A stretch of 64,000 nt of DNA from Bacteroidia bacterium (GTDB taxonomy: Bacteria; Bacteroidota; Bacteroidia; CAIKAF01), in the NCBI GenBank assembly GCA_030427255.1, contig JAUHWY010000018.1, forward strand, positions 2,359 to 66,358. Reading direction: 5' to 3'. Shown here in pieces: positions 3,602-64,000 of the stretch. How positions within the stretch are numbered: position 1 is the first letter of the stretch; the number at the start of each line of letters is the position of its first letter. The notes under the pieces were generated by a model. That model did not search any database. It saw nothing but the letters and a program-made list of their open reading frames with translations, and had not been told where the DNA came from. The translations under genes were made by a program, and so were the position numbers.

Positions 3602-3742
3602 AAGTAAGAAATGACAGAAGCAAAGAGACTTACAGCGGTCTTTCGGAAATATTGAGCATATACACTGCTTGAAAGATTTATTGAAAGCTTGGTGCCTTTG
3701 CTCCGGGTAGATTCTCTAACTTGCTTCGCAAAGTTAAATCAC

Positions 3743-4990
3743 ATGCGCAACTTTATTTTCGCTATTCTTCTGGTTTGTATTGGCCTTAGCACCTCAGCTC
3801 AAGGGGTTTTGATTGGAGACACGGCCCAGCCGCCGCATCCTGATGCCCTGCTCGAACTGCGCGGTTCAAGAGCCCTTTTGATGCCTCGGCTCAACACCAC
3901 CCAACGAAACGCCCTGCAAAATCCGGTACCCGGCATGCAGATTTACCATATTGACGACCAATGCGTCGAAGTGTATTTTCCCAGTCAAGGCTGGAGCGAC
4001 GTGGCCTGCGACTGCCCCAATCCCCCCTCGGCCGGTTTTAGCTTTAGCCCCAGCAGCCCAAACCTGAATCAATCGGTGACTTTCACTCCCGCCTCCGGTG
4101 GACTTAATTACCAATGGACCTTTGCCTCAGGAACTCCGGCAAGTTCAAACGCATCAAGCCCTCAAGTGAGCTGGACTCAAGCCGGCAACTACAATGTGCA
4201 ATTGGTGGTTACCGACAACACCGGCTGCACCGACACCAGCAACCAAAGCGTAACTGTGAACGCCTGCAACCCACAATCCGGTAACCAGACCTTCAACTAT
4301 ACCGGCAGCATGCAAACCTTTACCGTACCTGCCTGCATTACCAATTTGCAGGTAACCTTGTATGGAGCGGAGGGCGGTCAGCGCAACAGCCAGCCCGGTG
4401 GCCAAGGCGGCATGGTGAGCGGCGATTTGGCCGTAAGCCCGGGGCAGTTGGTTTATGTATATGTGGGTGGCCGAGGTGCCAATCAGCAAACCGCCGGTTG
4501 GAACGGTGGCGGCATTGGCGATTTTCAAGCCGGTGGCGAAGCCGGCGGCGGCGGCGGTGCTTCTGACCTGCGGCTGAATGGAACCAACCTTTCCGACCGA
4601 GTAGCGGTGGCTGGCGGCGGTGGCGGTTCCGGTTGGAATCGCGCCGGAGGACAAGGCGGCGGATCTACCGGCGGCGCGGGCCAGGGTCCTTACCCCGGAC
4701 AGGGAGGAACCCAAAGCGCAGGCGGTGCCCAGGGAGTAGATTTGTGCAATAACCAAACTTCAGCCCCGGGCATATTGGGCCAAGGTGGCAATGGAGCCAG
4801 TGGCGGTTGTGGTTCCGGCGGCGGAGGCGGCGGTGGCGGTGGCTACTACGGCGGCGGCGGTGGGGGCACCAACAACCCGGACTTAGGCTCCGGCGGCGGT
4901 GGCGGCTCCAATTATACCGGTGGACTCACCAATGCCAGCGGCAGCAGTGGCGTGCGCAGCGGAGACGGACAGATTTTGATTTCTTGGTAA
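3743..4990 (+). CDS. Secreted PKD-domain protein with a long glycine-rich C-terminal region (paralog of 51531..52829)
   Basis: Signal peptide MRNFIFAILLVCIGLSTSAQG. Conserved N-terminal module (ALLELRGS..LMPRLNTTQRNAL..GMQIYHIDDQCVEVY). PKD-like segment (NYQWTFASGTP...VQLVVTDNTGCTD). The TFTVPAC...GAEGG block is followed by G-rich repeats including GGGGGGGGGYYGGGGGG. The C-terminus is GDGQILISW. The ORF listed from 3689 probably starts at the Met at 3743. Confidence 0.7.
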   Translation: MRNFIFAILLVCIGLSTSAQGVLIGDTAQPPHPDALLELRGSRALLMPRLNTTQRNALQNPVPGMQIYHIDDQCVEVYFPSQGWSDVACDCPNPPSAGFSFSPSSPNLNQSVTFTPASGGLNYQWTFASGTPASSNASSPQVSWTQAGNYNVQLVVTDNTGCTDTSNQSVTVNACNPQSGNQTFNYTGSMQTFTVPACITNLQVTLYGAEGGQRNSQPGGQGGMVSGDLAVSPGQLVYVYVGGRGANQQTAGWNGGGIGDFQAGGEAGGGGGASDLRLNGTNLSDRVAVAGGGGGSGWNRAGGQGGGSTGGAGQGPYPGQGGTQSAGGAQGVDLCNNQTSAPGILGQGGNGASGGCGSGGGGGGGGGYYGGGGGGTNNPDLGSGGGGGSNYTGGLTNASGSSGVRSGDGQILISW

Positions 4991-7101: not shown

Positions 7102-8130
7102 TTAATATTTGAGAATTTTCGCCACCCGAACCAAAAGAATAAGAGCAGGAACTTCTACCAAAGGGCCAACTACACCCACAAAAGCTTGGGGTGATTGGAT
7201 TCCAAACAAAGCGATGGAAACGGCTATGGCCAATTCGAAGTTGTTTCCCGATGCTGTAAAGGCTATGGCCGCATTTTGAGGATATTCGGCGTTTAGCCAT
7301 TTCCCAATGCCAAAGGCCAGGCCAAACATGAGTGAAAAGTACAAAAGCAAGGGTAGCGCAAGGCGCAACACATCCAACGGCAAATCAAATATCACCTCAC
7401 TTTTAAGGGAGAACATCAATACCACCGTAAGCAACAATGCCACTAAGGTAAAAGGCCCAATAAATGGAAGGTATTTTTGCTCAAACCATTCCGGACTTTT
7501 TAATCGACTCCAAAAGGGGCGGCTCAATGCACCCAGAACAAAAGGGATACCCAAGTAAATACCTACGTTTTGGGCCACAAGCTGAATGGGTACGGTTAGT
7601 TGCATGCTTTCGGCTCCCAGCAAAGGCGGAACTAAGGTCAAAAACACCCACGCGTATAGGCTGTAGGCAAATACCTGAAAAAGACTGTTGAGGGCTACCA
7701 AGCCTGCACCCCAGGCATTGCTTCCTCCGGCCAAGTCGTTCCATACCAATACCATGGCAATGCAGCGCGCCAATCCTATTAGCACCAGACCTGAAAAATA
7801 GGCCGGCTCGTTTCTAAAGAAAATCCATGCCAGACCAAACATGAGCAATGGACCTATAACCCAATTGAGCACTAAGGACAACAGCAACAAACGGGGCTGG
7901 TTCATGATTTTGGGCAAGGCCTCATAACGCACTTTGGCCAGCGGTGGATACATCATTATCAGCAGTCCAATGGCCAGTGGAATATTGGTGCCACCCACGC
8001 TCCATACATGAAAGCTTATAACCCATTGAGGAAAGAAGAAACCTAGACCCAAGCCAAACGCCATGGCCAAGAATATCCAAACACTAAGCCCTCGATTTAA
8101 AAGCGAAAGTTGGGGGCCGGAATGCCTCAT
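7102..8130 (-). CDS. acr3: Arsenite efflux transporter, ACR3 family
   Basis: LSLLNRGLSVWIFLAMAFGLGLGFFFP matches the ACR3 N-terminus. There are about 10 TM segments. It is the last gene of the ars operon. The start is probably the Met at 8130 rather than the ORF start at 8163. Confidence 0.8.
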   Translation of the reverse strand: MRHSGPQLSLLNRGLSVWIFLAMAFGLGLGFFFPQWVISFHVWSVGGTNIPLAIGLLIMMYPPLAKVRYEALPKIMNQPRLLLLSLVLNWVIGPLLMFGLAWIFFRNEPAYFSGLVLIGLARCIAMVLVWNDLAGGSNAWGAGLVALNSLFQVFAYSLYAWVFLTLVPPLLGAESMQLTVPIQLVAQNVGIYLGIPFVLGALSRPFWSRLKSPEWFEQKYLPFIGPFTLVALLLTVVLMFSLKSEVIFDLPLDVLRLALPLLLYFSLMFGLAFGIGKWLNAEYPQNAAIAFTASGNNFELAIAVSIALFGIQSPQAFVGVVGPLVEVPALILLVRVAKILKY

Positions 8131-8744
8131 GCAGCAATGATTTTTTGAAGCATCCATTGCCATTCCGTAATCATGGACCGGGCGGTGCTAAGGTAGGCTT
8201 CGAGGGCTTGGTATGTACCGTCTTTTTCTCCTGGGTCTGCATAGGAAAGAACACTTCTATGTGAAGCACCGGGAACAAAGGGACATTGGGCATCGGCTTG
8301 CTCGCAAACCATTACGGCCCAGAACGATTGACCGTTGCCGGATGCCTCTTTTAAAGTTTTGGAAAAAACTGGGATGGGCTCTTGATCCTCGGCAAAATAA
8401 ATAAGGTATTCTGCCGGCGGCGCCAAGGCTTTTTCGGTTCGGAAACCTAAGTGGTTTAAGGCCTTTGCCACCGTGGGGTGCACTTGGGTTTTATGGGTTC
8501 CTGCCGAAGAGGTGCTTATGTTCAGGCGATGAGTTTTGGCCAATGCGAAACAAATGATTTGGGAAAGCTGGCTTCGTCTGGCGTTGTGGGTACACACAAA
8601 TCGAAGGTGGAGCTGCCCCTCCTTTTGCAGCCCCATTTTTATGGCCATGGCTAAGGTATTCAGCAGCTCCAGCCGCTCCGGATTTGGACTTTGATTGCGT
8701 CCCTCCATGAGGGATGCGTTGAGCTTTGGGAAGAAAGGAGTCAT
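8127..8744 (-). CDS. arsC: Arsenate reductase, LMW protein-tyrosine-phosphatase family (thioredoxin-coupled ArsC)
   Basis: C-X5-R-S P-loop (CTHNARRS). Operon context. The start is probably MTPFF at 8744; the ORF as listed extends to 8849 and overlaps arsM. Confidence 0.7.
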   Translation of the reverse strand: MTPFFPKLNASLMEGRNQSPNPERLELLNTLAMAIKMGLQKEGQLHLRFVCTHNARRSQLSQIICFALAKTHRLNISTSSAGTHKTQVHPTVAKALNHLGFRTEKALAPPAEYLIYFAEDQEPIPVFSKTLKEASGNGQSFWAVMVCEQADAQCPFVPGASHRSVLSYADPGEKDGTYQALEAYLSTARSMITEWQWMLQKIIAA

Positions 8745-8748
8745 GGAA

Positions 8749-9663
8749 TCAACAACAAGAGCCTCCCGGCGTGCAGGCTGATTTTTGGGCTTGAAGTTCG
8801 GCCAAAGAAAGCTTGGGTTTGGGCATAGTATTCCCCGGTTTTTTGGCAAAAACAGTGATGGAAAATATTCCGGTGCCGCCTAACAAGAAAGCTTCTTTTG
8901 CTTCGGCATCCAAGTATTTATCCAAAATATCCTCCGGAATTTCGATGGGCTTTTGTTTTTGAATGACCGGGGCTTCAAATCCCGCATCTTTGATGTAGGA
9001 AAGGTAATCGTCCATTTGAATGGCTCCGGCAATGCAGCCGGCATACATTTCGGCGTCTTGACGCAAGGCTTGAGGGAGTTCGCCCTTGAGCACTACATCC
9101 GAAATGCTGAAATGCCCACCGGGCTTTAATACCCGAAACATTTCTTGAAATACAGGGGGCTTTTCGGGAACCAGGTTTAGTACACAATTGCTAACGATTA
9201 CATCAGCCACGGCATCGTTTACCGGCATATGCTCAATGTCTCCTTCACGGAATTCCACATTGTTGAGGCCCAATTTTTCGGCATGGCTTCGTGCTTGGCG
9301 AATCATTTCGGGAGTAAAATCAATACCAATTACCTTTCCTTCCGGTCCGGTTTCGTGGCGGGCCACAAAGCAATCGTTGCCTGCACCTGAGCCTAGGTCA
9401 ATAACTACATCGCCGGGTTTTATTTGGGCAAATTGGGTAGGCAAACCACAACCCAAACCCAAATCAGCATCGGCTACATAACCTTGGGTTTGGCTGTAGT
9501 CGTCCATCATTATGTTGTAGACCTTGTTGGAAGAAGTGGTGGCTCCACAACAAGAGGATGCATTTGTGGCTTTGTCTTGTTTGGCGATGGAAGCGTAGCG
9601 GTCTTGGACCAATTTTTTGAGGGAATCTTTTTGCGTATGCATAACGTTTGAAATTAAGAGCAA
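8749..9663 (-). CDS. arsM: Arsenite S-adenosylmethionine methyltransferase
   Basis: SAM-MTase motif VIDLGSGAGNDCF. Conserved As-binding cysteines, C-terminal CTPGGSCC. Strong ArsM-like layout. Confidence 0.8.
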   Translation of the reverse strand: MLLISNVMHTQKDSLKKLVQDRYASIAKQDKATNASSCCGATTSSNKVYNIMMDDYSQTQGYVADADLGLGCGLPTQFAQIKPGDVVIDLGSGAGNDCFVARHETGPEGKVIGIDFTPEMIRQARSHAEKLGLNNVEFREGDIEHMPVNDAVADVIVSNCVLNLVPEKPPVFQEMFRVLKPGGHFSISDVVLKGELPQALRQDAEMYAGCIAGAIQMDDYLSYIKDAGFEAPVIQKQKPIEIPEDILDKYLDAEAKEAFLLGGTGIFSITVFAKKPGNTMPKPKLSLAELQAQKSACTPGGSCC

Positions 9664-10040: not shown

Positions 10041-10099
10041 TAACATTGGGCGATTCTTTTTAAGAAATCTATGATAAGGTGGAAGGGCAATGGTGAATG

Positions 10100-10545
10100 A
10101 TGAATGATGAATGATAAATGATAAATGATGAATGATAAATGATGAGGTAAAGACGGGATGCCTCCCGTCTCTCCATGATGATGTAAAGACGGGACATTTC
10201 CCGTCTCCGAATGATGAGGTAAAGACGGGATATCTCCCGTCTCCGAATGATGATGTAAAGACGGGATGCCTCCCGTCTCTCAATGATAAGGTAAAGACGA
10301 GATATCTCCCGTCTCTCCATGATGAGGTAAAGACGGGACATTTCCCGTCTCCGAATGATGATGTAAAGACGGGATGCCTCCCGTCTCTCAATGATAAATG
10401 ATGAGGTAAAGACGGGATGCCTCCCGTCTCTCCATGATAAGGTAAAGACGGGACATTTCCCGTCTCTGAATGATAAGGTAAAGACGGGATGCCTCCCGTC
10501 TCTCAATGATGAGGTAAAGACGGGATGCCTCCCGTCTCTCAATGG
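10100..10545. repeat. AATGATG/AATGATA heptamer array followed by 11 tandem 37-bp hairpin units (AATGATGAGGTAAAGACGGGA-loop-TCCCGTCTCTC)
   Basis: Units read off directly. Each unit has an 8-bp stem AGACGGGA/TCCCGTCT with a variable 4-nt loop (TGCC, CATT, TATC). There are no unique spacers between units. Confidence 0.85.
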
Positions 10546-10639
10546 GCCTTTATGTACACTTTTCGGCGGTTAAGGTAGACCTAGTTTAAGATAAAGAGGA
10601 TTAAACTCCTGCCCTTAGTTTTTTGACCTTTCCACAGAT

Positions 10640-51052: not shown

Positions 51053-51074
51053 GGGGCAAGGTAAGGAAATATAC

Positions 51075-51480
51075 GAATGATTAATGATTAATGATGAGTG
51101 ATGCAGTAAAGACGCAACATCTTGCGTCTCATGCGTCTCATGCGTCTCAAGCGTCTCATGCCTCCCCTGCGTCTCAAACCGCAGTAAAGACGCAACATCT
51201 TGCGCCTCATTTTTTTGGCCGCCTTATCCTGCTGTCTGCGGTAGTGCCCCGTCTCCGGCCCACGGTCTGCGGCCGCTCCGGGGTCTTCGTTCCTCAGCCT
51301 CCTCGCTTGGCCGCATACCGGGGCCGGAGCCGCGTCAGCTACCTGCTTCCATCAGGGGCGGAGGATTACTAAAACTTTAAGAGAGGGGTGAGGTAAAGAC
51401 GCAATATCTTGCGTCTCAAACCGCAGAAAAGACGCAGTATCTTGCATCTCAAAAGTCTCAACTTGTTTTCAACACCCCAC
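51075..51480. repeat. Composite repeat: heptamer array, GGTAAAGACGCAA-loop-TTGCGTCTCA hairpin units, GC-rich palindromic core, then more hairpin units
   Basis: Read off directly. TGCGTCTCA nonamer repeats. The core has inverted repeat CTCCGGCCCACGGTCTGCGGCC ... GGCCGCATACCGGGGCCGGAG. Confidence 0.8.
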
Positions 51481-51530
51481 GCCCAACCGCTCTTTTGTCC
51501 TTACCTTTATCTTTCAACTTATTTTTCTTT

Positions 51531-52829
51531 ATGAAGTTCCTTTATTTCTTGCTTAGCCTTCTTTGGTCCGCCGGACTTTATGCGCAATCCGTTCGCATTG
51601 CTTCGTCTCCCGGACAGGCCGACCCCAGCGCCGGTTTGGATGTGGATTTTAACGACCGGGGCCTGCTTTTGCCCAGGTTAACCACCACCCAACGCAATGC
51701 CATCGCCAGTCCTGCCGATGGGCTTCAAATATTCAATACCACCAGCCAATGCATGGAAGTCTTTATTTCCAACAGTTGGTTTGCAGTGGCTTGCCCTTGC
51801 CAATATTTTCCCAACGCTCAGTTTTCGTTCTCTCCTTCCAATCCGGGAGCAGGAAATGCGGTGAGTTTTAGTCCCCAGCAATCAGGACTGCAATACCAAT
51901 GGTTGTTTGCCTCCGGTACACCGGCCTCTTCTTCCCAAGCCAACCCTTCCGTTACTTGGGCCAATGCAGGTACTTATTCGGTGGTGCTTCAGGTGACCGA
52001 CAACCAAGGATGCACCGCATCCGATACCCAAAATGTGGTGGTGAGCAGCTGCCCTCCCGGTTCTCAAACCTTTACCGCCAACGGCACGCTAGCCTCGGGT
52101 AGCATTCAAAGTTTTACGGTGCCGGCCTGTGCAACCTCAGTTACGGTAGAAGCCTGGGGCGCACAAGGCGGAAGTACCTCCAACACCAACGGTGGTTTGG
52201 GCGCCTACATCAAAGGCACTTTCTCGGTGTCGGGCGGTGAAGTACTGCGCGTCTTGGTGGGTCAACAAGGCGAAGCCGGCTCTTCTGGTCACGGCAACTG
52301 CGGTGGCGGCGGTGGCGGCTCTTTTGTGACCCGCAGCAACAACCAGCCCATGGTGGTGGCCGGTGGAGGCGGCGGTGCAGGAACCGCTTCCAACATCAGC
52401 ATTCGTACGCCCGATCCGGGACAAACTGGAAACAGCGGAACGGCAGGAAAAGGAAATGGAATGCCCGGCGGCACCGGAGGAAATGGTGCTCCGGGAGTTT
52501 GTTCAAGTTGTGGCGCAACCAATGGAGCCGGTTTGCAGAGCAACAGCCAAGCCTATGGCAGCTCTTATGGAACCTCAGCCATTGCTTTTACCAATGGTGG
52601 AGGAGGGGCTACCTCCAGTAGTGGATACGACGGTGGATTTGGGGGTGGCGGAGCAGGAGCTTTTGGTGCCGGCGGCGGCGGAGGTTATTCCGGTGGAGGT
52701 TCAGGAAACTATTCCGGTACCACGGACAACAGCGGCGGCGGCGGTGGCGGCTCTTTTAATGGAGGCACCAATCCGAGCAATCAAGCCGGAGTGAGGAGTG
52801 GGAATGGGCAAGTAATCATTAGTTGGTAA
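51531..52829 (+). CDS. Secreted PKD-domain/glycine-rich protein (paralog of 3743..4990)
   Basis: Signal peptide MKFLYFLLSLLWSAGLYAQ. Same N-terminal module (GLLLPRLTTTQRNAI...GLQIFNTTSQCMEVF). PKD-like segment. SFTVPACATSVTVEAWGAQGG. G-rich tail ending GNGQVIISW. Confidence 0.7.
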   Translation: MKFLYFLLSLLWSAGLYAQSVRIASSPGQADPSAGLDVDFNDRGLLLPRLTTTQRNAIASPADGLQIFNTTSQCMEVFISNSWFAVACPCQYFPNAQFSFSPSNPGAGNAVSFSPQQSGLQYQWLFASGTPASSSQANPSVTWANAGTYSVVLQVTDNQGCTASDTQNVVVSSCPPGSQTFTANGTLASGSIQSFTVPACATSVTVEAWGAQGGSTSNTNGGLGAYIKGTFSVSGGEVLRVLVGQQGEAGSSGHGNCGGGGGGSFVTRSNNQPMVVAGGGGGAGTASNISIRTPDPGQTGNSGTAGKGNGMPGGTGGNGAPGVCSSCGATNGAGLQSNSQAYGSSYGTSAIAFTNGGGGATSSSGYDGGFGGGGAGAFGAGGGGGYSGGGSGNYSGTTDNSGGGGGGSFNGGTNPSNQAGVRSGNGQVIISW

Positions 52830-53021: not shown

Positions 53022-55280
53022 ATGGAAAGCCACAAAATCGATGACTATTTGGCCGAAGAACAGGCCGAAATCAAAAAGCAATACCGCGCCCTGTTGCGGG
53101 CTGCCGGCAAAAATGTGGACAAGCCGGAGGACAAAAAGCGCATTCGTAGGGCCTTTGATTTGGCCGTAGATGCCCACAAAGAAATGCGCCGAAAGTCAGG
53201 AGAACCCTACATTTATCACCCCATTGCCGTGGCGCGCATTGTGTCGGAGGAGATGGGGCTGGGGGCCACCAGCATCATTTGTGCTTTGCTGCACGATACG
53301 GTAGAAGATACCGAAATTACCCTCGAAGATATTGAGCAGTTTTTTGGCCCAAAAGAGTCCAAAATCATCGATGGGCTCACCAAAATGGAAGGGGTATTTG
53401 ACCATACGCAATCCATTCAGGCCGAGAATTTTCGGAAGATTGTACTTACCCTCGCCGAGGACATTCGGGTAATTCTTATAAAAATCGCCGATCGCCTGCA
53501 CAACATGCGCACGCTCACCCACATGCGGCGCGATAAGCAACTTAAAATCGCCTCTGAAACGCTCTATTTGTATGCGCCTTTGGCCCATCGCCTTGGCCTG
53601 TACAACATCAAAACGGAGCTGGAAGACTTGAGCCTCTGCTATTTGGAACCCGAAGCTTTTGCCGATATTGAAGCCAAGCTCGAAAAAAGCAAAGAAGTAC
53701 GCGATCGCTTCGTTACCCATTTTGTGTATCCAATCCGCAAGGCCCTAAAGGCTCAAGAAATTGATTTTGAAATAAAAGGAAGAACCAAGTCCATTTATTC
53801 CATTTACAATAAGATTCGTAAGAAGGGTGTTCCTTTTGAGGAGATTTACGACATTTTTGCCATCCGAATCATTTTGGATGTGCCGCCCGAACGCGAAAAG
53901 GCTGAAATTTGGCGCACCTATTCTCTGGTCACCGATGTGTATCAACCCAAGCCGGACCGCCTGCGCGATTGGATTAGCTTTCCCCGGGCCAACGGCTACG
54001 AAAGTTTGCACGTTACGGTGATGAGTCCCACCGGCAAATGGGTGGAAGTACAAATCCGCAGCCGGCGCATGGACGACATGGCCGAAAAGGGCTATGCCGC
54101 CCATTGGAAGTACAAAGAGAATCAAGCCGAATCGGCCATTGACGAGTGGATTACCCGCGTGCGCGAAATGCTCGAAAGCCATCAGGAAGGGGAAGCCCTC
54201 GATTTTATGGACTCCTTTAAGTTGAACTTGTACAACGAGGAGATTTATACCTTTACACCTAAGGGAGAGCTGCGCACCATGCCTTCGGGTGCCACGGCCC
54301 TGGATTTTGCCTACGATATCCATTCCGAACTGGGCGACCACTGCCTTGGCGCCAAGGTCAACAACAAACTGGTGCCGCTAAGCTATGTGCTCAAAAGCGG
54401 CGACCAAATCGAAATTCTAAGCTCCAAAAAGCAAAAGCCCAAGGAAGATTGGCTCAGCTTTGTGGTAACCGGCAAAGCCCGCAGCCGCATCAAAGCTGCC
54501 CTCAAAGACGAAAAACGCCGCATTGCTGCCGAAGGAAAAGAAGTATTGGAACGCAAACTGCGCCGCCTTAAAATTCATTTTACCGAGGACGACCTGCCCA
54601 AAATGCTTAAATACTTCTCGGTGGACGATCCCTTGGAATTTTATTTTCAGGTGGGTACTGCGGCCATCAGCTCCCAACAAATTCGCGATTTTTATCGGGC
54701 AGAGAGCAACCGCAGCTGGTACCGCTACCTCACCACCAAGTTTAAGCGCAGCCAAATCAACGAAAAGGCCGAGGACAAAGACCAGCAGCTGCTCAAAAAG
54801 CTCAAGCAAGAAGAGAATCAACTACTGATTGGCGACAATTTAGAGAAGTTGGACTATAGCTTGGCCCCCTGTTGCAACCCCATTCCCGGCGACGAGGTAT
54901 TTGGCTTTGTTACCGTGGGCGACGGCATTAAAATCCACAAAACCAATTGCCCCAACGCCGTACAACTGCTCTCCAACTACGCCTATAGAGTGGTGAAAGC
55001 CAAGTGGACCAGTTCCGACGAACCTGCCTTTTTGGTGGGCATTCGCGTAACGGGCGTAGACGATGTGGGCATAGTGAATAAAATTACCCGCCTCATTTCC
55101 AATCAAATGAAGGTGAATATACGCTCTTTGAGTTTCGACTCAAATGATGGTATCTTTGAAGGCAGAATGACCCTGTTTGTGCAACATACCCTGCATTTGA
55201 ACGAACTCATCGGCAAATTGCGCGATTTGGAGGGGGTTATTGATGTGGAACGCATTACCCCTGAGCACCCAACGGCATGA
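53022..55280 (+). CDS. Bifunctional (p)ppGpp synthetase/hydrolase, RelA/SpoT family
   Basis: HD hydrolase motif (ALLHDTVEDT). Synthetase domain. TGS and C-terminal ACT regions. Confidence 0.9.
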   Translation: MESHKIDDYLAEEQAEIKKQYRALLRAAGKNVDKPEDKKRIRRAFDLAVDAHKEMRRKSGEPYIYHPIAVARIVSEEMGLGATSIICALLHDTVEDTEITLEDIEQFFGPKESKIIDGLTKMEGVFDHTQSIQAENFRKIVLTLAEDIRVILIKIADRLHNMRTLTHMRRDKQLKIASETLYLYAPLAHRLGLYNIKTELEDLSLCYLEPEAFADIEAKLEKSKEVRDRFVTHFVYPIRKALKAQEIDFEIKGRTKSIYSIYNKIRKKGVPFEEIYDIFAIRIILDVPPEREKAEIWRTYSLVTDVYQPKPDRLRDWISFPRANGYESLHVTVMSPTGKWVEVQIRSRRMDDMAEKGYAAHWKYKENQAESAIDEWITRVREMLESHQEGEALDFMDSFKLNLYNEEIYTFTPKGELRTMPSGATALDFAYDIHSELGDHCLGAKVNNKLVPLSYVLKSGDQIEILSSKKQKPKEDWLSFVVTGKARSRIKAALKDEKRRIAAEGKEVLERKLRRLKIHFTEDDLPKMLKYFSVDDPLEFYFQVGTAAISSQQIRDFYRAESNRSWYRYLTTKFKRSQINEKAEDKDQQLLKKLKQEENQLLIGDNLEKLDYSLAPCCNPIPGDEVFGFVTVGDGIKIHKTNCPNAVQLLSNYAYRVVKAKWTSSDEPAFLVGIRVTGVDDVGIVNKITRLISNQMKVNIRSLSFDSNDGIFEGRMTLFVQHTLHLNELIGKLRDLEGVIDVERITPEHPTA

Positions 55281-55741
55281 ATCAGAACCAGATGGAAGAA
55301 GTGCGCGACATTTTTAGTCGTTATTTGGAGGCCAATGGCCACCGCAAAACCCCGGAACGTTTTGCCATCCTCGAAGAAATTTACAGCCGCAACCACCATT
55401 TTGACGTTGAGGAGCTCTTTAAATCCATGAAAGAGCGCAACTATAGGGTGAGCCGGGCCACCGTGTACAATACCTTGGACCTTTTGCTCAATTGCCATTT
55501 GGTGCGCAAACACCAGTTCACCGGCAATTTGGCCCAATACGAAAAAAGCCACGGCTACAGCCAGCACGACCACCTCATTTGCAACCAATGCCACAAGGTT
55601 ACCGAGTTTTGTGATCCGCGCCTACACCACATCCAAACCGGCGTGGGCGATTTGCTCGGTTTTCAAATCAAACATCATTCCTTTATTCTGTACGGGGATT
55701 GCAACCAATCCGACTGCCCGGATCGACCGGATGCGCCGTAA
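55277..55741 (+). CDS. fur: Fur family transcriptional regulator
   Basis: Winged-helix N-terminus. HHDHLIC...C and C-terminal Cys/His metal-site motifs. Confidence 0.8.
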   Translation: MNQNQMEEVRDIFSRYLEANGHRKTPERFAILEEIYSRNHHFDVEELFKSMKERNYRVSRATVYNTLDLLLNCHLVRKHQFTGNLAQYEKSHGYSQHDHLICNQCHKVTEFCDPRLHHIQTGVGDLLGFQIKHHSFILYGDCNQSDCPDRPDAP

Positions 55742-55805
55742 CCACGGGATATGTTGCGTCTCTGCATGCCAATTATTCCGCGCTGAAGCCTTTGCGCCTC
55801 TAAGA

Positions 55806-55953
55806 CATCGGCATCCGCGCCTGCGCCGTCCAATCCAGCGACCCCTTGGCCCCGCTCCGATATTTCATTAGCCCCGCCATGGCAATCATGGCCGCATTGT
55901 CGGTGCAATAAGCCAATTTGGGGATGTGCAATTCCCAGCCTTTTTGGGTGCAG
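55806..55953. repeat. 147-bp direct repeat copy A: displaced duplicate of the tsaD 3-prime end (putative attL)
   Basis: 143/147 identity with 57112-57262. Read on the minus strand it encodes a TsaD-like C-terminus ending ...QARMPMS* with no upstream coding continuation. Confidence 0.75.
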
Positions 55954-56107
55954 GAATTTTTTAGAAATCTGTATTCAACATGGGTAGCGGTAATTTTATA
56001 ATGTAGAAAACTCTTAGAGAAAGCACAAATGCTATTTAAAACTATAGTTTTGAAACAATTTTAATTTTTTTTCGTATAACCTTTTGTTTTATAAAAAATA
56101 TTAGCGA

Positions 56108-57067
56108 ATGAGAACTGTAAAAGATTACATGTTAAATCCAGAATTATTTGATAATGATAATTTTAATGAAATCGAGGCGTACCATTTTTTCTCAAAAACC
56201 TTAAATAGAGTAAGGCTACCTATTATAAATGTTACTGTAGCAAATAATTTTATTGATAGGCTTAGAAGGTTAGAAGGTGATAAACTTCATACTAGTTTGG
56301 CAGACTATCTTCCGGTGTCTTCAACAAATTATGAGGTTTTAGAAAAAATTTCTGGAGGTAGAGCTAACTTGCCCAGACAATCCGTTTTTTATGGTAGTTT
56401 AAGAACAGAGGAAAATCCTTACAGCCGTATTACTGCTTTAACAGAGGTTTCTGCGAATCATAGGCGTCCAGCAATTAATAAAGTGCAGTTAAAAGACTTA
56501 ACAAGATTTCAAGAAAATGAAGAGAGTAGTAACTTAAAGGATTTTTTTTATTCTTTTTCACGGTGGGAAATTAGGAAGCCATTAGAGCTTGCAGTTGTAA
56601 TGCCTTTTGGGAGTTATGCAAATTCAATGAATAGGCAAATAATGGAGCAGTGTCAGCAAAAATTTAATTCACTTTCCACAAGAGATAAAGAGTTAATAAG
56701 ACTTCTTTCTGACTCATTCTTAAATAATAAAAGTACTCGTTGGAAGTACTATTTTTCTGCATATTACGCAAACTGTTTATATAGGGAATTTGATGGAATT
56801 CTTTACCCGAGTATGCAATCAAACCAAGAAGGGCAAAATATTGTTTTAAGGAGTGATGTAGTTCTAAATAAGTTAAGCTTAGATAAAATAGCTCTTTTAG
56901 AAGAAAGAGTTATAAATGACAATAAAAGCCCTCACACAGTGGTAGATATAATTGGTGTTGGAGATTTTTCGAATGATGATATTTTTTTCTATACATTAAA
57001 GAATGGAGTAATTAGTTCCACAAGAAAATGTTATTGTAAAGACCAATTGAAACAAATGGCGAAATAG
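56108..57067 (+). CDS. Orphan extended RES-domain-like protein on an AT-rich islet (putative NAD+-targeting toxin or defence effector)
   Basis: Arg motif SGGRANLP (GGRxN-like). VFYGSL...ALTEV (Y-x-S...A-L-E). DGILYPSMQSNQEGQNIVL (Ser motif plus N-[IL]-V-L). GC is about 30% against a 50% background. Confidence 0.5.
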   Translation: MRTVKDYMLNPELFDNDNFNEIEAYHFFSKTLNRVRLPIINVTVANNFIDRLRRLEGDKLHTSLADYLPVSSTNYEVLEKISGGRANLPRQSVFYGSLRTEENPYSRITALTEVSANHRRPAINKVQLKDLTRFQENEESSNLKDFFYSFSRWEIRKPLELAVVMPFGSYANSMNRQIMEQCQQKFNSLSTRDKELIRLLSDSFLNNKSTRWKYYFSAYYANCLYREFDGILYPSMQSNQEGQNIVLRSDVVLNKLSLDKIALLEERVINDNKSPHTVVDIIGVGDFSNDDIFFYTLKNGVISSTRKCYCKDQLKQMAK

Positions 57068-57087
57068 GCGAGTAGAAATAGTTGATT

Positions 57088-58125
57088 TTAAGAAACCTTA
57101 TTGGGGTGTATCATCGGCATCCGCGCCTGCGCCGTCCAATCCAGCGACCCCTTAGCCCCGCTCCGATATTTCATTAGCCCCGCCATGGCAATCATAGCCG
57201 CATTGTCGGTGCAATAAGCCAATTTGGGGATGTGCAATTCCCAGCCTTTTTCGGTGCAAGCCTCCAGCAAAAAGCCCCGAAGCCCTTTATTGGCCGATAC
57301 CCCGCCTGCCAGCACCACCCGATGCACGCCCGTGGCCTCAACCGCCTCTTGCAGTCCCTTCCACAAAGTGGCAATAATCGCATCCTGATAATCGCGCGCC
57401 AAATCGGCCAAAGCTTGTCCCTCAGGAACCGCTTCCTGCTTTTGCAAGTACTGATACAAACTGGTTTTTAGTCCCGAAAAACTAAAATGCAGCGGTCCGG
57501 CCTTAGGCACAGGGAAGCGATGATTTCCGGGGCGACCTTGCGCGGCCAAGCGATCGATTTCCGGTCCTCCGGGATAGGGCAGCCCCAGCAATTTGGCGGC
57601 CTTGTCAAAGGCTTCGCCGGCGGCGTCGTCCAGGGTTTGACCGAGCAGTTCCAGACGGGTAGGGGAGTGCACCAGCACCAATTGCGTATGCCCCCCCGAC
57701 ACCGTAAGGCTCAGAAAAGGAAAATCGGGAGGATTTTTGCCGCTGATTTCCGCATCCTCAATAAAATGCGCCAGCACATGCGCTTCCATGTGGTGCACAT
57801 CAATAAGCGGAAGATTCAGCGCCAAGCTAAGTCCCTTGGCAAAGGAGCTGCCCACCAGCAGCGAACCCAGCAAACCGGGACCACGGGTGCAGGCAATCAG
57901 TTCCAAATCCTCCAGACGGCATTGCGCTTGCGCCAGGGCCTGATGCACCACCGGCAGAATGTGGCTCATATGGGCACGGGAGGCCAATTCGGGCACCACG
58001 CCACCGTATTGTCGGTGCACCTCCTGATTGGCGGTGACGTTGGCCAGAACGCGCGAGCCACTAAGCACGGCCGCGGAAGTATCGTCGCAGGAGCTTTCGA
58101 TGCCAAGAATAAGCGGTGGGCGCAT
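57088..58125 (-). CDS. tsaD: tRNA N6-adenosine threonylcarbamoyltransferase TsaD
   Basis: ILGIESSCDDTSAAV N-terminus. Conserved His pair and Kae1/TsaD fold length. The last roughly 150 bp are the copy B repeat, and the final 7 codons lie on the islet side. Confidence 0.85.
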   Translation of the reverse strand: MRPPLILGIESSCDDTSAAVLSGSRVLANVTANQEVHRQYGGVVPELASRAHMSHILPVVHQALAQAQCRLEDLELIACTRGPGLLGSLLVGSSFAKGLSLALNLPLIDVHHMEAHVLAHFIEDAEISGKNPPDFPFLSLTVSGGHTQLVLVHSPTRLELLGQTLDDAAGEAFDKAAKLLGLPYPGGPEIDRLAAQGRPGNHRFPVPKAGPLHFSFSGLKTSLYQYLQKQEAVPEGQALADLARDYQDAIIATLWKGLQEAVEATGVHRVVLAGGVSANKGLRGFLLEACTEKGWELHIPKLAYCTDNAAMIAMAGLMKYRSGAKGSLDWTAQARMPMIHPNKVS

Positions 58126-58146
58126 GGCGCAAAGGTAGGATATCTT

Positions 58147-58640
58147 GGAATGATGAATGATGGATGATGAATGATGAGTGATGAATGATGAGGTAAAGAC
58201 GCAACATCTTGCGTCTCATGCGTCTCATGCGTCTCCACCCCCCAGTAACGACGCAACATCTTACGTCTTATGCGTCTCATGCGTCCCAAACGGCGCTTCT
58301 TGGGCCTTCCTTCCATAGGAAACCTAAGTTCCATATCCGCCCCTTTTCATCGGTCAGGCCCCGCCCCAAGCAAGCCGATCTAGGGCTCCGGTGGTTCCGC
58401 AAAGCTACACCTCCTCGCCCAAGTTCGGCTAGCCTGGGTCAGGGCGGCTTACAGCCCTGACCCTAGCGTCAGGGGCCCTCTGTGGGGGGCGGGAGGCGCA
58501 ACAAAAGGGCGTAGTGACGCATTGCCATGCGTCTACAGCAAGAGGGTAGCGACGCAAAATGTTGCATAATGGTGTTGTGGTTTATGGAGACGCAAAGTAT
58601 TGCGTCTTTACATCATTCATCATTAACCATTCATGATTAA
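58147..58640. mobile_element. MITE-like composite element with inverted termini (heptamer array plus GACGCAA hairpin units at both ends, in opposite orientation, flanking a GC-rich palindromic core)
   Basis: Left end 58147-58285 is GAATGATG array then GGTAAAGACGCAACATCTTGCGTCTCA. Right end 58587-58640 is GAGACGCAAAGTATTGCGTCTTTACATCATTCATCATT, the reverse complement of the same module. The core 58286-58560 contains GCTCCGGTGGTTCCGCAAAGCT, the inverted form of a block shared with other cores. Confidence 0.6.
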
Positions 58641-61600: not shown

Positions 61601-63448
61601 CCTTTGGAAACCATAAAGCCCTTTGCCGGTGATTTATTCAAAAGCCTTTCCGGAAAAGCCTCCGGGCGCTTGTTGGTGAAGGGCAGCGGCGACAATCCCC
61701 AAATCAATGGTGCCCTGTATTTGACCAAGCCTCAAATGAACTTGGCCTTTTTAAACAGCCCCATGAAGCTGGATTTAAAAGGCGAGCCTATTTTGTTTAC
61801 CAGCCATTCCATCATTTTGCCGGACATCCGTATTACCGACAGCAAAGAAGGTTCCGCTCACTTGATTGGTGTATTGTTTCATAGAAACTTCGCCGATTTA
61901 GAAATGCGCCTGAACTTGGACCGGATTAAGAATTTCCAAGCCATGGCCACCACGGTGAAAGACAACGAACAGTTTTACGGCAAGGCCGTGGTAACCAGTC
62001 AAGATCTGGTCCCCAAAGGCAATGGTAGAGCAGTGGAAATCAGCGGTCCTCTCAACGATTTGTACATCAAAGCCAATTTGGAGGTGGGGGCAGGTACGTC
62101 CATCAATCTACCCATATCGGGCGGGGCAACGGCCCAGGAAAACAACTTTGTACGCTTTGTAGACCGCGACAGCATGCAAATCAAAGGCAAGCTTGGCGGA
62201 AATCAAGCCAATGGGGCGGAGGCCGATGAAGGAAACCTTACCATTGAGCTGCATTTGCGCACGACCGCAGATGCGGAATACCGCGTAATTTTTGATGAAA
62301 CCGTGGGCGACGTACTCACCGCAAGAGGCACTTCCGACCATTTGGCCATTACCTTAGACATGAAGGACCGTTTTGAAATGGACGGTACCTTTACCATTGC
62401 CAAGGGCGATTATCTGTTTACCCTTTCCAACCTGGTCAATAAGCCGTTTATCATTAAACCCGGCAGTTTTGTTACCTGGAGCGGAGACCCGCTTGAGGCC
62501 CAAATCAATGCCACGGCCATTCATCCGGCGCGGGCTTCTTTGTATCCTTTGGTATCGCCTTTTACCAGCGATCCTGCTCAAGCCGAACGCTACCGCAGAG
62601 CCAGCAGGATATTTTGCGAACTTAATTTGACCGACCGATTGATTGACCCGCGCATTGGTTTTGGTCTTTCCCTTCCCGACGAGGACGAGAGCACCCGTGC
62701 GTTGGTGCGTTCGGTCATGAATTCGGAAGAAGAGGTCAATCGCCAGGTGTTTTCGCTATTGATCATCAATTCGTTTTTGCCACCGGAGTCCATTGGTTCC
62801 GGAGGTTTGGGCGGTGGTGCCTTGGCGGCCTCAGGTTTGGGAAGCAACTCTTTGAGCTTGTTGAGTGGTCAACTGAACAATTGGTTGGGAAAATTCACCA
62901 AGGATGTGAACATCAATTTGGATTACCAGGCAGGCGAACAAAACCGTGCCGAGCGGGTGATGGTAGGTTTGCAAACTCAGCTGTTCGACAACCGGGTAAT
63001 CATCGATACCGACCTTGGCGTGGGTGGGGGCGATCAAAGTCAAGCCGACAATACCAATACGGTAGTTGGAAACGTAAATGTGGAGGTAAAAGCCACCGAG
63101 GACGGACGTTTGAGGATTCGGGCCTTTAATCGAAGCAACGAATACAACCTGCTTAAAAACAGTGTGCCTTATACCCAAGGGGTGGGCTTGAGTTATCAGC
63201 GAGAGTTTGATGCATGGTCCGATTTGTTTAGGCCATCCAAAACCAAGGACAGCCTAAAGGTTAGACCGCCGGATGGCACCGAAAAGCAAGAAACAGAGCA
63301 ACAACCCGAACTCATCAACGATTCGGATCCGGAATATTTGCAGCAGCAGAAAGGAGCCTTTGATGGAGATGGGAATGCGCCAACGCCGCCTCCAAATCCG
63401 CCGCCATCTAAGGGTATTTTGGTTCCGGATCCTACGGATATGGACTAG
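58688..63448 (+). CDS. tamB: Translocation and assembly module protein TamB (AsmA-like, DUF490 C-terminus)
   Basis: 1586 aa. N-terminal signal-anchor. Long beta-rich repetitive body. Conserved TamB C-terminal domain. Confidence 0.8.
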   Translation: MTSTEAPNPTPAAAPKKGRFFRRVGRIFLGFFLFLLSLLVALQLPFVQSWLGSLAADWLSNKTGHEVRVEALHIDFLDLAVDLKGLYLGDLHGDTLIFAENLHAVLGEVQQERRAIVIDEVALENGGIFLVKYPGESGMNLDTFLARLKPEQPDTLSTAEPWIIEFDKVRLDRASFRLQNPEITGTEAAFQPSDIGLSDISVTVHSFHVRQDTVMMHVDSLVARDKGGAQLRALSGDFLYCKHQLSLEDFSLSTGRSTIRGFMSMSFEDPSAFQHFEEKVDLHAQLALSNVHMGDIAWFAPGLRGLESSFRIRGKIKGQLNNLRAEGLRILFGSVTQLDGRLHLKGLPDIQNTHMDIDLDRMVTNGYDLERIPLPPFPEQRYVQVPAELKRLGVLKFNGHFDGYLRDFNAFGQLQTGLGSASLDVHMVQPAKGLPYYEGFVDLKKFQAGALAGKQLGLGMVSASGEIRGEGFSGEDFFAAFDGGVSLLEINGYTYQGLVVNADVGPGVFTGRVLVDDPNAKLDFNGRIDFSQEKPSFDFIARLSEVDLGRLNVIALDSSSSLSTNIYINASGDEPDNIMGSLRVDNTRFSLGSREYQMDELTLSSELLPEGKTLSLHSDFIDADVDGQYRFVPLFQHLGNQLAAINPSSGLEKVEILDSLPQNFTFSVHLKETAALTDLFVPGLSIHPNSIAYGQYNSAARDIRLNLRSGKVQWKQWELDSWTLRADTRNDSLTVQTRVAHVRMNDSLQLDRFMGRVQWLRDTLVFDLGFSNETAKLNALSLHGTTRLGDSLGLPVELSNSYGYYQDGLWRLQDGAFVLLGADRLAFRDFKVESEQHKLPLLSISGAAGLNEKEKLDISFADFPVALLGEFIPGGGLEPSGNLSGTLSLYRLFSEEMPLMTSNLKIDDLSMNGLALGKLSVDSRFGAEGKVLEIGALLQKDGVDLLKISNSKVRPFEPEQLLDIEANIEGLPLETIKPFAGDLFKSLSGKASGRLLVKGSGDNPQINGALYLTKPQMNLAFLNSPMKLDLKGEPILFTSHSIILPDIRITDSKEGSAHLIGVLFHRNFADLEMRLNLDRIKNFQAMATTVKDNEQFYGKAVVTSQDLVPKGNGRAVEISGPLNDLYIKANLEVGAGTSINLPISGGATAQENNFVRFVDRDSMQIKGKLGGNQANGAEADEGNLTIELHLRTTADAEYRVIFDETVGDVLTARGTSDHLAITLDMKDRFEMDGTFTIAKGDYLFTLSNLVNKPFIIKPGSFVTWSGDPLEAQINATAIHPARASLYPLVSPFTSDPAQAERYRRASRIFCELNLTDRLIDPRIGFGLSLPDEDESTRALVRSVMNSEEEVNRQVFSLLIINSFLPPESIGSGGLGGGALAASGLGSNSLSLLSGQLNNWLGKFTKDVNINLDYQAGEQNRAERVMVGLQTQLFDNRVIIDTDLGVGGGDQSQADNTNTVVGNVNVEVKATEDGRLRIRAFNRSNEYNLLKNSVPYTQGVGLSYQREFDAWSDLFRPSKTKDSLKVRPPDGTEKQETEQQPELINDSDPEYLQQQKGAFDGDGNAPTPPPNPPPSKGILVPDPTDMD

Positions 63449-63840
63449 GGTGAATGATGAATGGTGAATGATGAATGGTGAATGATGAATGATGAATGGT
63501 GAATGATGAATGGTGAATGATGAATGGTGAATGGTGAATGATGAATGGTGAATGATGAATGGTGAATGATGAATGGTGAATGATGAATGGTGAATGATGA
63601 ATGGTGAATGATGAATGATGAATGGTGAATGATGAATGATGAATGATGAATGATTAGGGGTGAGGTAAAGACGCAACATCTTGCGTCTCATTAGGGGTGA
63701 GGTAAAGACGGGGTGCCTCGCGTCTCATTAGGGGTGAGGTAATGACGGGATGCCTCGCGTCTCTTAATGATGAATGGTGTATGGTGAATGATGAATGATT
63801 AGGGATGAGGTAAATACGGGATGCCTCCCGTCTCTTAATG
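63449..63840. repeat. (GAATGATGAATGGT)n 14-bp array of about 15 copies, then mixed GACGCAA-type and GACGGGA-type hairpin units each preceded by TTAGGGGTGAGG
   Basis: Starts on the base after the tamB stop. Both hairpin families occur in one array. Confidence 0.85.
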
Positions 63841-64000
63841 ATGAATGGACTCTGCGTGCCCTTACACCGCGACAGCGGTTTCACGCAAAGTCGCCAAGCC
63901 GCAAAGGGGCGTTTGACGGCGCTATCTATTTCACAAATAGTTCCTTCCGCGCTAAAGCCTTTGCGCCTTCGCGTTTCTGCATGCCAATGCTTCCGCGCTA
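63841..64000. repeat. GC-rich core element, truncated by the window end
   Basis: Shares TTCCGCGCTAAAGCCTTTGCGCC and TCTGCATGCCAAT blocks with 55758-55800. Confidence 0.5.

Follow-up and report, generated by a model that had tools for sequence, protein, structure and literature searches.

A one-gene, AT-rich islet without a recombinase, flanked by direct repeats of the tsaD 3' end, in a Bacteroidia bacterium

The element e14 of Escherichia coli K-12, like phage 21, sits within the 3' end of the housekeeping gene icd in such a way that the gene's end is present twice. One copy, of 165 nt, is supplied by the element and completes the reading frame; the other, icdC, is a pseudogene that has been displaced and differs from the first at 12/165 positions. 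An arrangement of comparable topology is described here for tsaD, a universally conserved tRNA-modification gene that is essential in most bacteria, in a 64,000-nt stretch of DNA from a Bacteroidia bacterium (GTDB CAIKAF01; GenBank assembly GCA_030427255.1, contig JAUHWY010000018.1, positions 2,359 to 66,358). This whole stretch is referred to as the window, and all coordinates count from its first letter. The 3' end of its tsaD gene contains an islet of 1.16 kb that holds one gene, probably toxin-like and anti-phage in function, between two 147-nt copies of the tsaD end.

The comparison with e14 extends to the size of the duplication, which in both cases amounts to approximately 150 nt of the last ~50 codons (165 and 147 nt, respectively), to repeats that complete the interrupted gene, and to the existence of an empty site. 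In contrast, e14 is 15 kb long and encodes intE and xisE, while the islet has its single gene and no recombinase gene next to the putative attachment (att) site. The two e14 copies differ at 12/165 positions, whereas those of the islet differ at 3/147 and share substitutions that are specific to the host lineage. Replacement of the gene end is also imperfect relative to e14, in the sense that the TsaD tail becomes 6 aa longer.

In gene content the islet resembles the cis-mobilizable elements (CIMEs; for example those of Streptococcus thermophilus), which likewise lie at a gene's 3' end between direct repeats and are devoid of genes for integration and transfer (PMC6323972); the repeats of the islet are intact and it has neither kind of gene. 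CIMEs are, however, defined by a known integrative and conjugative element (ICE) or integrative and mobilizable element (IME) that shares their att site, and are mobilized by accretion; for the islet no such partner and no tsaD-specific integrase is known or has been found. An Xer-dependent (IMEX-type) element seems a less apt reading: such elements use a 28-nt dif site, as against 147 nt of coding sequence in the islet.

The closest likeness of the cargo is to aRES proteins, described in a 2026 preprint by Osterman et al. as standalone proteins with a RES domain, 300-600 aa in length, whose genes occur in defence islands; they are NAD+ (nicotinamide adenine dinucleotide) phosphorylases that deplete NAD+ by phosphorolysis on infection (10.64898/2026.01.28.702374). 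The cargo protein, at 319 aa, shares the RES fold and catalytic-type triad with these, has no partner or antitoxin, and has homologues among defence genes, the nearest of them no more than 33% identical. Its gene, however, is the sole occupant of an islet instead of being part of a defence island, and it is likened to aRES by description only. RES-Xre type II modules (MbcTA, NatRT, ParST), on the other hand, include an Xre-type antitoxin, which the cargo is without; with extra segments at both the N and the C terminus, it is also roughly double the length of the minimal RES toxins. The tsaD islet can thus be thought of as an att-flanked islet that resembles e14 in topology, CIMEs in gene content and aRES in cargo. 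Having no recombinase, it does not qualify as an autonomous integrative element, and with no cognate ICE or IME known it is at most a candidate CIME. It is unusual in its target gene, in its minimal size, and in having repeats that are host-like rather than foreign.

The repeats, the insert and the empty site

The two repeats lie in direct orientation at 55806-55952 (the left copy) and 57112-57258 (the right copy, which serves as the working 3' end of tsaD). Each comprises 147 nt, corresponding on the minus strand to 49 codons of tsaD, T290 to M338, and spans the most conserved C-terminal motif of TsaD. Pairwise alignment gives 144/147 identity, with mismatches at 55848 (G/A), 55890 (G/A) and 55946 (G/C), a longest exact common block of 55 nt, and a sharp drop of similarity beyond both repeat edges. 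A 42-mer of the repeat has exactly two occurrences in the window (0.00 are expected by chance), and the whole-window repeat scan finds no third copy.

The DNA between the repeats (55953-57111; 1,159 nt) has 30.7% GC, as against 50-58% in the adjacent genes, and is the lowest-GC kilobase of the window. GC at third codon positions is 0.24 in the cargo open reading frame (ORF), compared with 0.56-0.65 in relA, fur, tsaD and tamB. The composition of the insert is foreign. It has a single credible ORF, of 319 aa on the plus strand (56108-57067), within which lie two short antisense ORFs (39 and 52 aa); every other ORF of the islet is shorter than 60 aa. The repeat scan detects no terminal inverted repeats at the insert and the islet has no transposase ORF. 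A transposon or insertion sequence is ruled out by these absences and by a 147-nt duplication that far exceeds known target duplications.

The two gene ends were read directly in the sequence of 54400-58400. The intact tsaD gene (57088-58125, minus strand; 345 aa, Pfam TsaD E = 1.6e-90, identical to database protein P0278) continues across the right copy into seven codons of the islet, ...ARMPM-IHPNKVS*, so that an islet-encoded tail with its stop codon (57088-57111, minus strand) takes the place of the native Ser-stop. The displaced native end (55800-55952, minus strand) consists of the left copy together with the native last Ser codon and stop (55800-55805; stop at 55800-55802). It reads ...ARMPMS*, is followed by the terminus of fur (55277-55741, plus strand), the ancestral convergent neighbour of tsaD, and is a promoterless pseudogene fragment. 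The order is accordingly tsaD body, right repeat, cassette, left repeat, native Ser-stop, fur, and the TsaD reading frame is whole despite the insert.

A first-pass annotation of the window, made from its letters and ORFs, had recognized much of this structure. Its 147-bp direct repeats around an AT-rich single-gene segment, its GC contrast of ~30% to ~50%, and the two endings IHPNKVS* and S* at the fused and displaced copies, respectively, are all recovered by repeat scan, composition, ORF scan and direct reading, as is its placement of an insertion with att-like duplication at the 3' end of a tsaD that is kept whole. The absence of a recombinase that it reported holds for the islet and also for the 20 window ORFs scanned with Pfam. 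Of its repeat figures, the two copies and the length of 147 nt stand; the identity (given as 143/147) and the copy ends (given as 55953 and 57262) are corrected to 144/147, 55952 and 57258. Membership of a dispersed repeat family, which it had named among the findings that would refute it, is ruled out: the window has no more than two copies, and what is repeated is conserved coding sequence of tsaD that occurs once in each relative. The empty-site alleles that it proposed to look for in the tsaD-fur interval exist in six related contigs, and favour a true insertion.

These six contigs represent three lineages of the same genus and were reached from four members of the TsaD 90% protein cluster together with exact look-ups. 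They are a 53.8-kb ENA scaffold (L084) with 93-97% nucleotide identity to the window, NCBI assembly GCA_964545365.1 (L090), a 521-kb contig of a more distant species (L092; GCA_018401695.1), and three Logan contigs (L085, L091 and L093). In every one, tsaD ends in ...ARMPMS* and is followed by convergent fur, 20-250 nt from the tsaD stop, and then relA. L084, L085, L090 and L091 have no AT-rich insert and one copy of the 147 nt. The gene order tamB/tsaD/fur/relA is conserved between the window and the empty-site contigs, and the window is collinear with L084 and L090 from 45.4 to 63.5 kb, spacer repeats excepted. Six members of the TsaD 90% cluster end in native ...ARMPMS, one 79-aa fragment continues past the Ser, and the IHPNKVS tail is confined to the window's own protein (P0278). 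(Among GTDB species representatives the best TsaD match is 58% identical, which is too distant for comparison of empty sites.) The insertion is derived and, as far as sampled, restricted to one lineage.

The history of the two copies can be followed in an alignment (A4) with four empty-site alleles from two sub-lineages. Four substitutions (A4 columns 86, 122, 175 and 194), one of which changes KYQ to KYR, are common to both window copies and present in none of the four empty alleles. At the three positions that distinguish the copies, the left one is derived at two, including a non-synonymous E-to-Q change in an otherwise conserved TEKGW motif, and the right one at a single, synonymous site. 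This pattern fits a constrained working copy alongside a decaying fragment, though three sites prove nothing statistically. By this alignment the window copies are each other's closest relatives, and neither looks brought in from elsewhere. A foreign origin of the replacement end that the first-pass annotation had the element supply is not supported, in view of the same four shared substitutions: either the duplicate stems from this host lineage (having been derived from the host when the insert entered, or captured from a sibling cell), or gene conversion has homogenized the copies since.

Two further observations concern transcription at the repeats. The cargo gene and tsaD are convergent, and their stop codons are separated by 20 nt (57068-57087) with no terminator in the gap, and transcription from the cargo gene into the 3' end of tsaD is possible. 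A terminator-like hairpin with a T-run, identified by consensus match only, lies within each repeat on the plus strand, which is also the strand of fur (55918-55938 and 57224-57244); at the empty site it would sit just downstream of fur. Since it is internal to the repeat, the duplication would have left the putative relA-fur terminator beside fur while providing the cargo gene with another downstream.

The cargo gene

The cargo gene (56108-57067, plus strand) is preceded by an AT-rich, non-coding leader (55953-56107, plus strand) with two promoter-like matches, both by consensus only: TAGTTTTG at 56045-56052, which ends 55 nt before the ATG and fits the Bacteroidota-type -7 consensus (which we take to be TAnnTTTG), and a sigma-70-like match at 55975-56002.

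Assignment of the 319-aa product to the RES family rests on Pfam, a conserved triad and the predicted fold. The Pfam RES match is short (residues 213-247) and above threshold (E = 1.1e-5). A HMMER scan of 1.84 billion representative proteins yields 162 distant relatives, ~23-38% identical and mostly ~260-340 aa in length. In an alignment with 41 homologues, 23 of which match Pfam RES themselves, R85 is invariant, E113 and Y233-P234-S235 are nearly so, and the residues conserved in the family (R85, E113, S235) fall in motifs of the RES triad, GRAN.P.Q..FYG and GI.YPS. An AlphaFold2 model built from the homologue alignment is confident (pLDDT 82, pTM 0.82), and among its Foldseek matches the RES toxin NatT, from the NatRT module, ranks first (E = 5e-5). 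What these lines of evidence point to is a standalone RES-domain enzyme with a predicted ADP-ribosyltransferase fold.

A toxin-antitoxin module is ruled out, there being no adjacent Xre/COG5642 or other antitoxin ORF. The islet has no antitoxin ORF anywhere and no room for one, with 155 nt upstream and 44 nt downstream of the cargo gene.

The genomic company of homologues is of defence type in all four contexts examined. One homologue (P0152) is found in a type I restriction-modification locus (L086, 563-9938), with hsdS on one side and hsdR on the other; another adjoins a GmrSD_N protein gene, a third is near a TIR protein gene and a HigBA-like pair, and the fourth adjoins YaaC and AAA_13 genes. 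No flanking repeats surround these four loci. The window's own cargo gene stands alone between tsaD and fur, outside any defence island. The enzyme most likely depletes NAD+ on phage infection, as aRES proteins do, to judge from fold and context, and the gene is probably toxin-like and anti-phage.

As a separate observation, P0152 shares its hsdS-hsdR interval with six other ORFs, four of them without a Pfam match and the others assigned to DUF4325 and DUF6088. The interval is a typical insertion slot for defence genes, and its content could help to define partners of this RES subfamily.

How the islet may have entered tsaD

The succession of tsaD body, right repeat, insert, left repeat and downstream DNA is the product expected of a single reciprocal crossover, and the account that we hold to be rather probable is that a small circle, bearing a duplicate of the tsaD 3' end, was inserted by a Campbell-type event and persists as a recombinase-less, CIME-like islet. 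Specifically, a circle of ~1.3 kb, consisting of the cassette and a 147-nt tsaD 3' copy, would have undergone one reciprocal exchange with chromosomal tsaD; its tsaD copy would have come from the same host lineage, or have been homogenized later with the host copy by gene conversion. As the enzyme of the crossover, a site-specific integrase and RecA are given about equal weight. Loss or movement of the islet could take three routes: recombination of the two 147-nt repeats by RecA, whereby tsaD would be restored scarlessly and a 1,306-nt circle set free; exchange through the flanking core genes; and action of an integrase supplied in trans. (A length of 147 nt is well above the minimum for efficient homologous recombination.) The RecA route would constitute a self-consistent life cycle that requires no recombinase of the element's own. 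Direct repeats are prone to deletion, yet these have had time to diverge by 2%, which suggests that the islet is probably maintained by selection on its cargo.

Some of what was found weighs against Campbell-type insertion of such a circle and against the reading of its cargo. The account offers no explanation of how a 30%-GC gene and a fragment of the host's own tsaD first came to share a circle, and the window contig seems to be the product of metagenome assembly. Neither a circular form, nor an excision product, nor an empty site of the same lineage was seen. A survey of 80 Bacteroidota tsaD loci revealed no further tsaD-targeting element, none of these loci having another copy of the tsaD C-terminus within 6 kb. 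For 134 ORFs immediately downstream of tsaD, Phage_integrase falls outside the 25 commonest Pfam families (the rarest of the 25 has 3 members, and fewer than three of these ORFs can carry it). Nor is there a parent element or near relative of the cassette in the collections searched: a word-indexed search of 5.8 billion proteins with the cassette protein returned that protein alone, the filled-junction 36-mer and a degenerate RES-motif pattern had no match in JGI metagenomes, the tsaD C-terminal peptide had none in IMG/VR, and tblastn gave none in plasmids and phages. For the cargo, a sequence profile run against PDB chains gave no match, and neither did PADLOC, PHROGs and NCBIfam (the 2023 PADLOC release has no aRES model).

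The competitor that survives best, which we nevertheless rate as unlikely, is a decayed site-specific element: a prophage, ICE or IME that targeted tsaD, brought a replacement 3' end and has been reduced to one cargo gene, or else a satellite served from elsewhere. It amounts to a strong form of the integrase route within the Campbell-type account. Integrase action is by far the commonest origin of structures of this sort, att-flanked elements that lack integration genes are a recognized class (PMC6323972), an empty site exists, and the layout matches e14 in icd, where the far end of the element carries a 165-nt duplicate of the icd 3' end (icdC). The repeat moreover covers the most conserved C-terminal motif of TsaD, which would be the type of target that integrases prefer. 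No integrase, resolvase or transposase is present, however, in the islet or among the 20 window ORFs of unknown look that were scanned with Pfam (the remaining ORFs being judged ordinary housekeeping genes from their opening residues), and the window has no tRNA gene. The supposedly element-borne copy has all four of the host-lineage substitutions, and where the e14 copies differ at 12/165 positions these differ at 3/147, with no separate history visible, although gene conversion could mask one; a decayed element therefore requires either gene conversion or very recent capture. It also requires deletions that removed all but 1.16 kb and yet spared both repeats, and it has no counterpart at tsaD in the 80 Bacteroidota loci or in IMG/VR, and the literature searched makes no mention of an attachment site in tsaD.

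A more radical possibility, less probable still and best regarded as speculative, is that the islet is a recombinase-independent mobile cassette, in which a defence gene is coupled to 147 nt duplicated from the 3' end of an essential gene, these serving as a portable homology arm. Host RecA alone would then insert it by Campbell crossover, leaving tsaD intact, and would remove it without a scar. The host-lineage identity of both copies and the failure to find a recombinase or parent element fit such a RecA-only cassette, which is not to say that they prove it.

One-step illegitimate insertion is improbable. Foreign DNA would have been joined at a staggered double-strand break, or between sister chromosomes, with fill-in duplicating 147 nt and with no involvement of a circle, an att site or homology. 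It is the most direct and simplest explanation of lineage substitutions that are present in both copies, and it accounts for the lack of a recombinase, of terminal inverted repeats and of any related element. Gene conversion accounts equally well for the shared substitutions, however, and two simultaneous illegitimate joins would have to preserve the frame of an essential gene by chance. Target duplications made by transposases and casposases are under ~15 nt, and we know of no bacterial precedent for one of 147 nt.

The integrated form itself is supported by Logan contigs, recovered through exact-protein look-ups from assemblies made at k=31. One (L001; ERR3428543, the same contig being recorded in two samples) is identical to window 55916-57141 and joins the G at 55946 that is specific to the left copy to the left end of the islet. 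Two others, L082 (SRR24442558) and L083 (ERR3428543), represent the relA-fur side and both end at 55835, 30 nt into the left repeat, as expected of a k=31 graph at a true two-copy repeat. Both islet junctions are thus recovered at 100% identity in contigs of two runs, which are possibly not independent of the reads behind the window. By themselves these k=31 contigs fit an integrated islet or a circle plus an empty site alike; with exact blocks of no more than 55 nt, an assembler k above ~57 should phase the two copies unambiguously. That a metagenome assembler threaded an AT-rich circle or foreign contig sharing ~147 nt with tsaD into the chromosome is very improbable, even for a source that looks metagenome-assembled and whose relatives are metagenome-assembled genomes or metagenome contigs, in view of three mismatches that let a normal assembler k phase body to right repeat to islet and islet to left repeat to fur, of the link made by L001, of identical junction contigs in two runs, of a 1.3-kb circle without a replication gene that presumably could not persist on its own, and of a pseudogene-like change in the displaced copy as opposed to a solely synonymous one in the in-gene copy.

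Other features of the window, and the place of the islet

The window has a family of GC-rich hairpins resembling repetitive extragenic palindromic (REP) sequences or miniature inverted-repeat transposable elements (GTAAAGACG..loop..CGTCTC), usually located after an AATGATG-type microsatellite, with arrays at 10043-10580, 51062-51473, 58149-58292 and 63400-63850. At 10095-10580 the family forms a tandem of at least 11 units with a 36-nt period, which creates a spurious 157-aa ORF. One degenerate copy (55738-55762) lies in the fur-tsaD spacer directly beside the left repeat. Spacers that bear these hairpins are the parts that differ in length between the window and L084/L090; the tsaD-fur spacer of L084 has ~190 extra bases (8645-8806), with an N run and copies of the hairpin repeat. 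The spacer beside the insertion site is a hotspot of small-repeat turnover.

Elsewhere, two GC-rich patches (~60% GC) lie in or beside ORFs 3689-4990 and 51495-52829. The first ORF matches PKD as well as a glycine-rich domain of ALK/LTK type, and related contigs carry a PKD annotation at the counterpart of the second. An SBF-family transporter gene (7102-8163; the sodium/bile-acid symporter family of Pfam) is near a gene for a SAM-dependent methyltransferase (8749-9663), and from their look one might guess at an arsenic-resistance-type pair.

The islet provides a natural example, with filled and empty alleles, of a putative defence gene parked in a conserved tRNA-modification gene that is left undamaged, with no recombinase in sight. 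Island finders that are keyed to integrases or to tRNA genes would miss it. It adds tsaD, for which the literature searched holds no earlier record of this kind, to the protein-gene 3' ends that are used as insertion sites, and it places an aRES-like, putatively NAD+-targeting gene in an uncultured lineage of Bacteroidota. If RecA alone moves the islet in and out, it would exemplify a simple and under-appreciated route of defence-gene flux; and if the tsaD copy does act as a portable homology arm, the islet would represent a minimal hitch-hiking strategy that integrase-based finders do not see.

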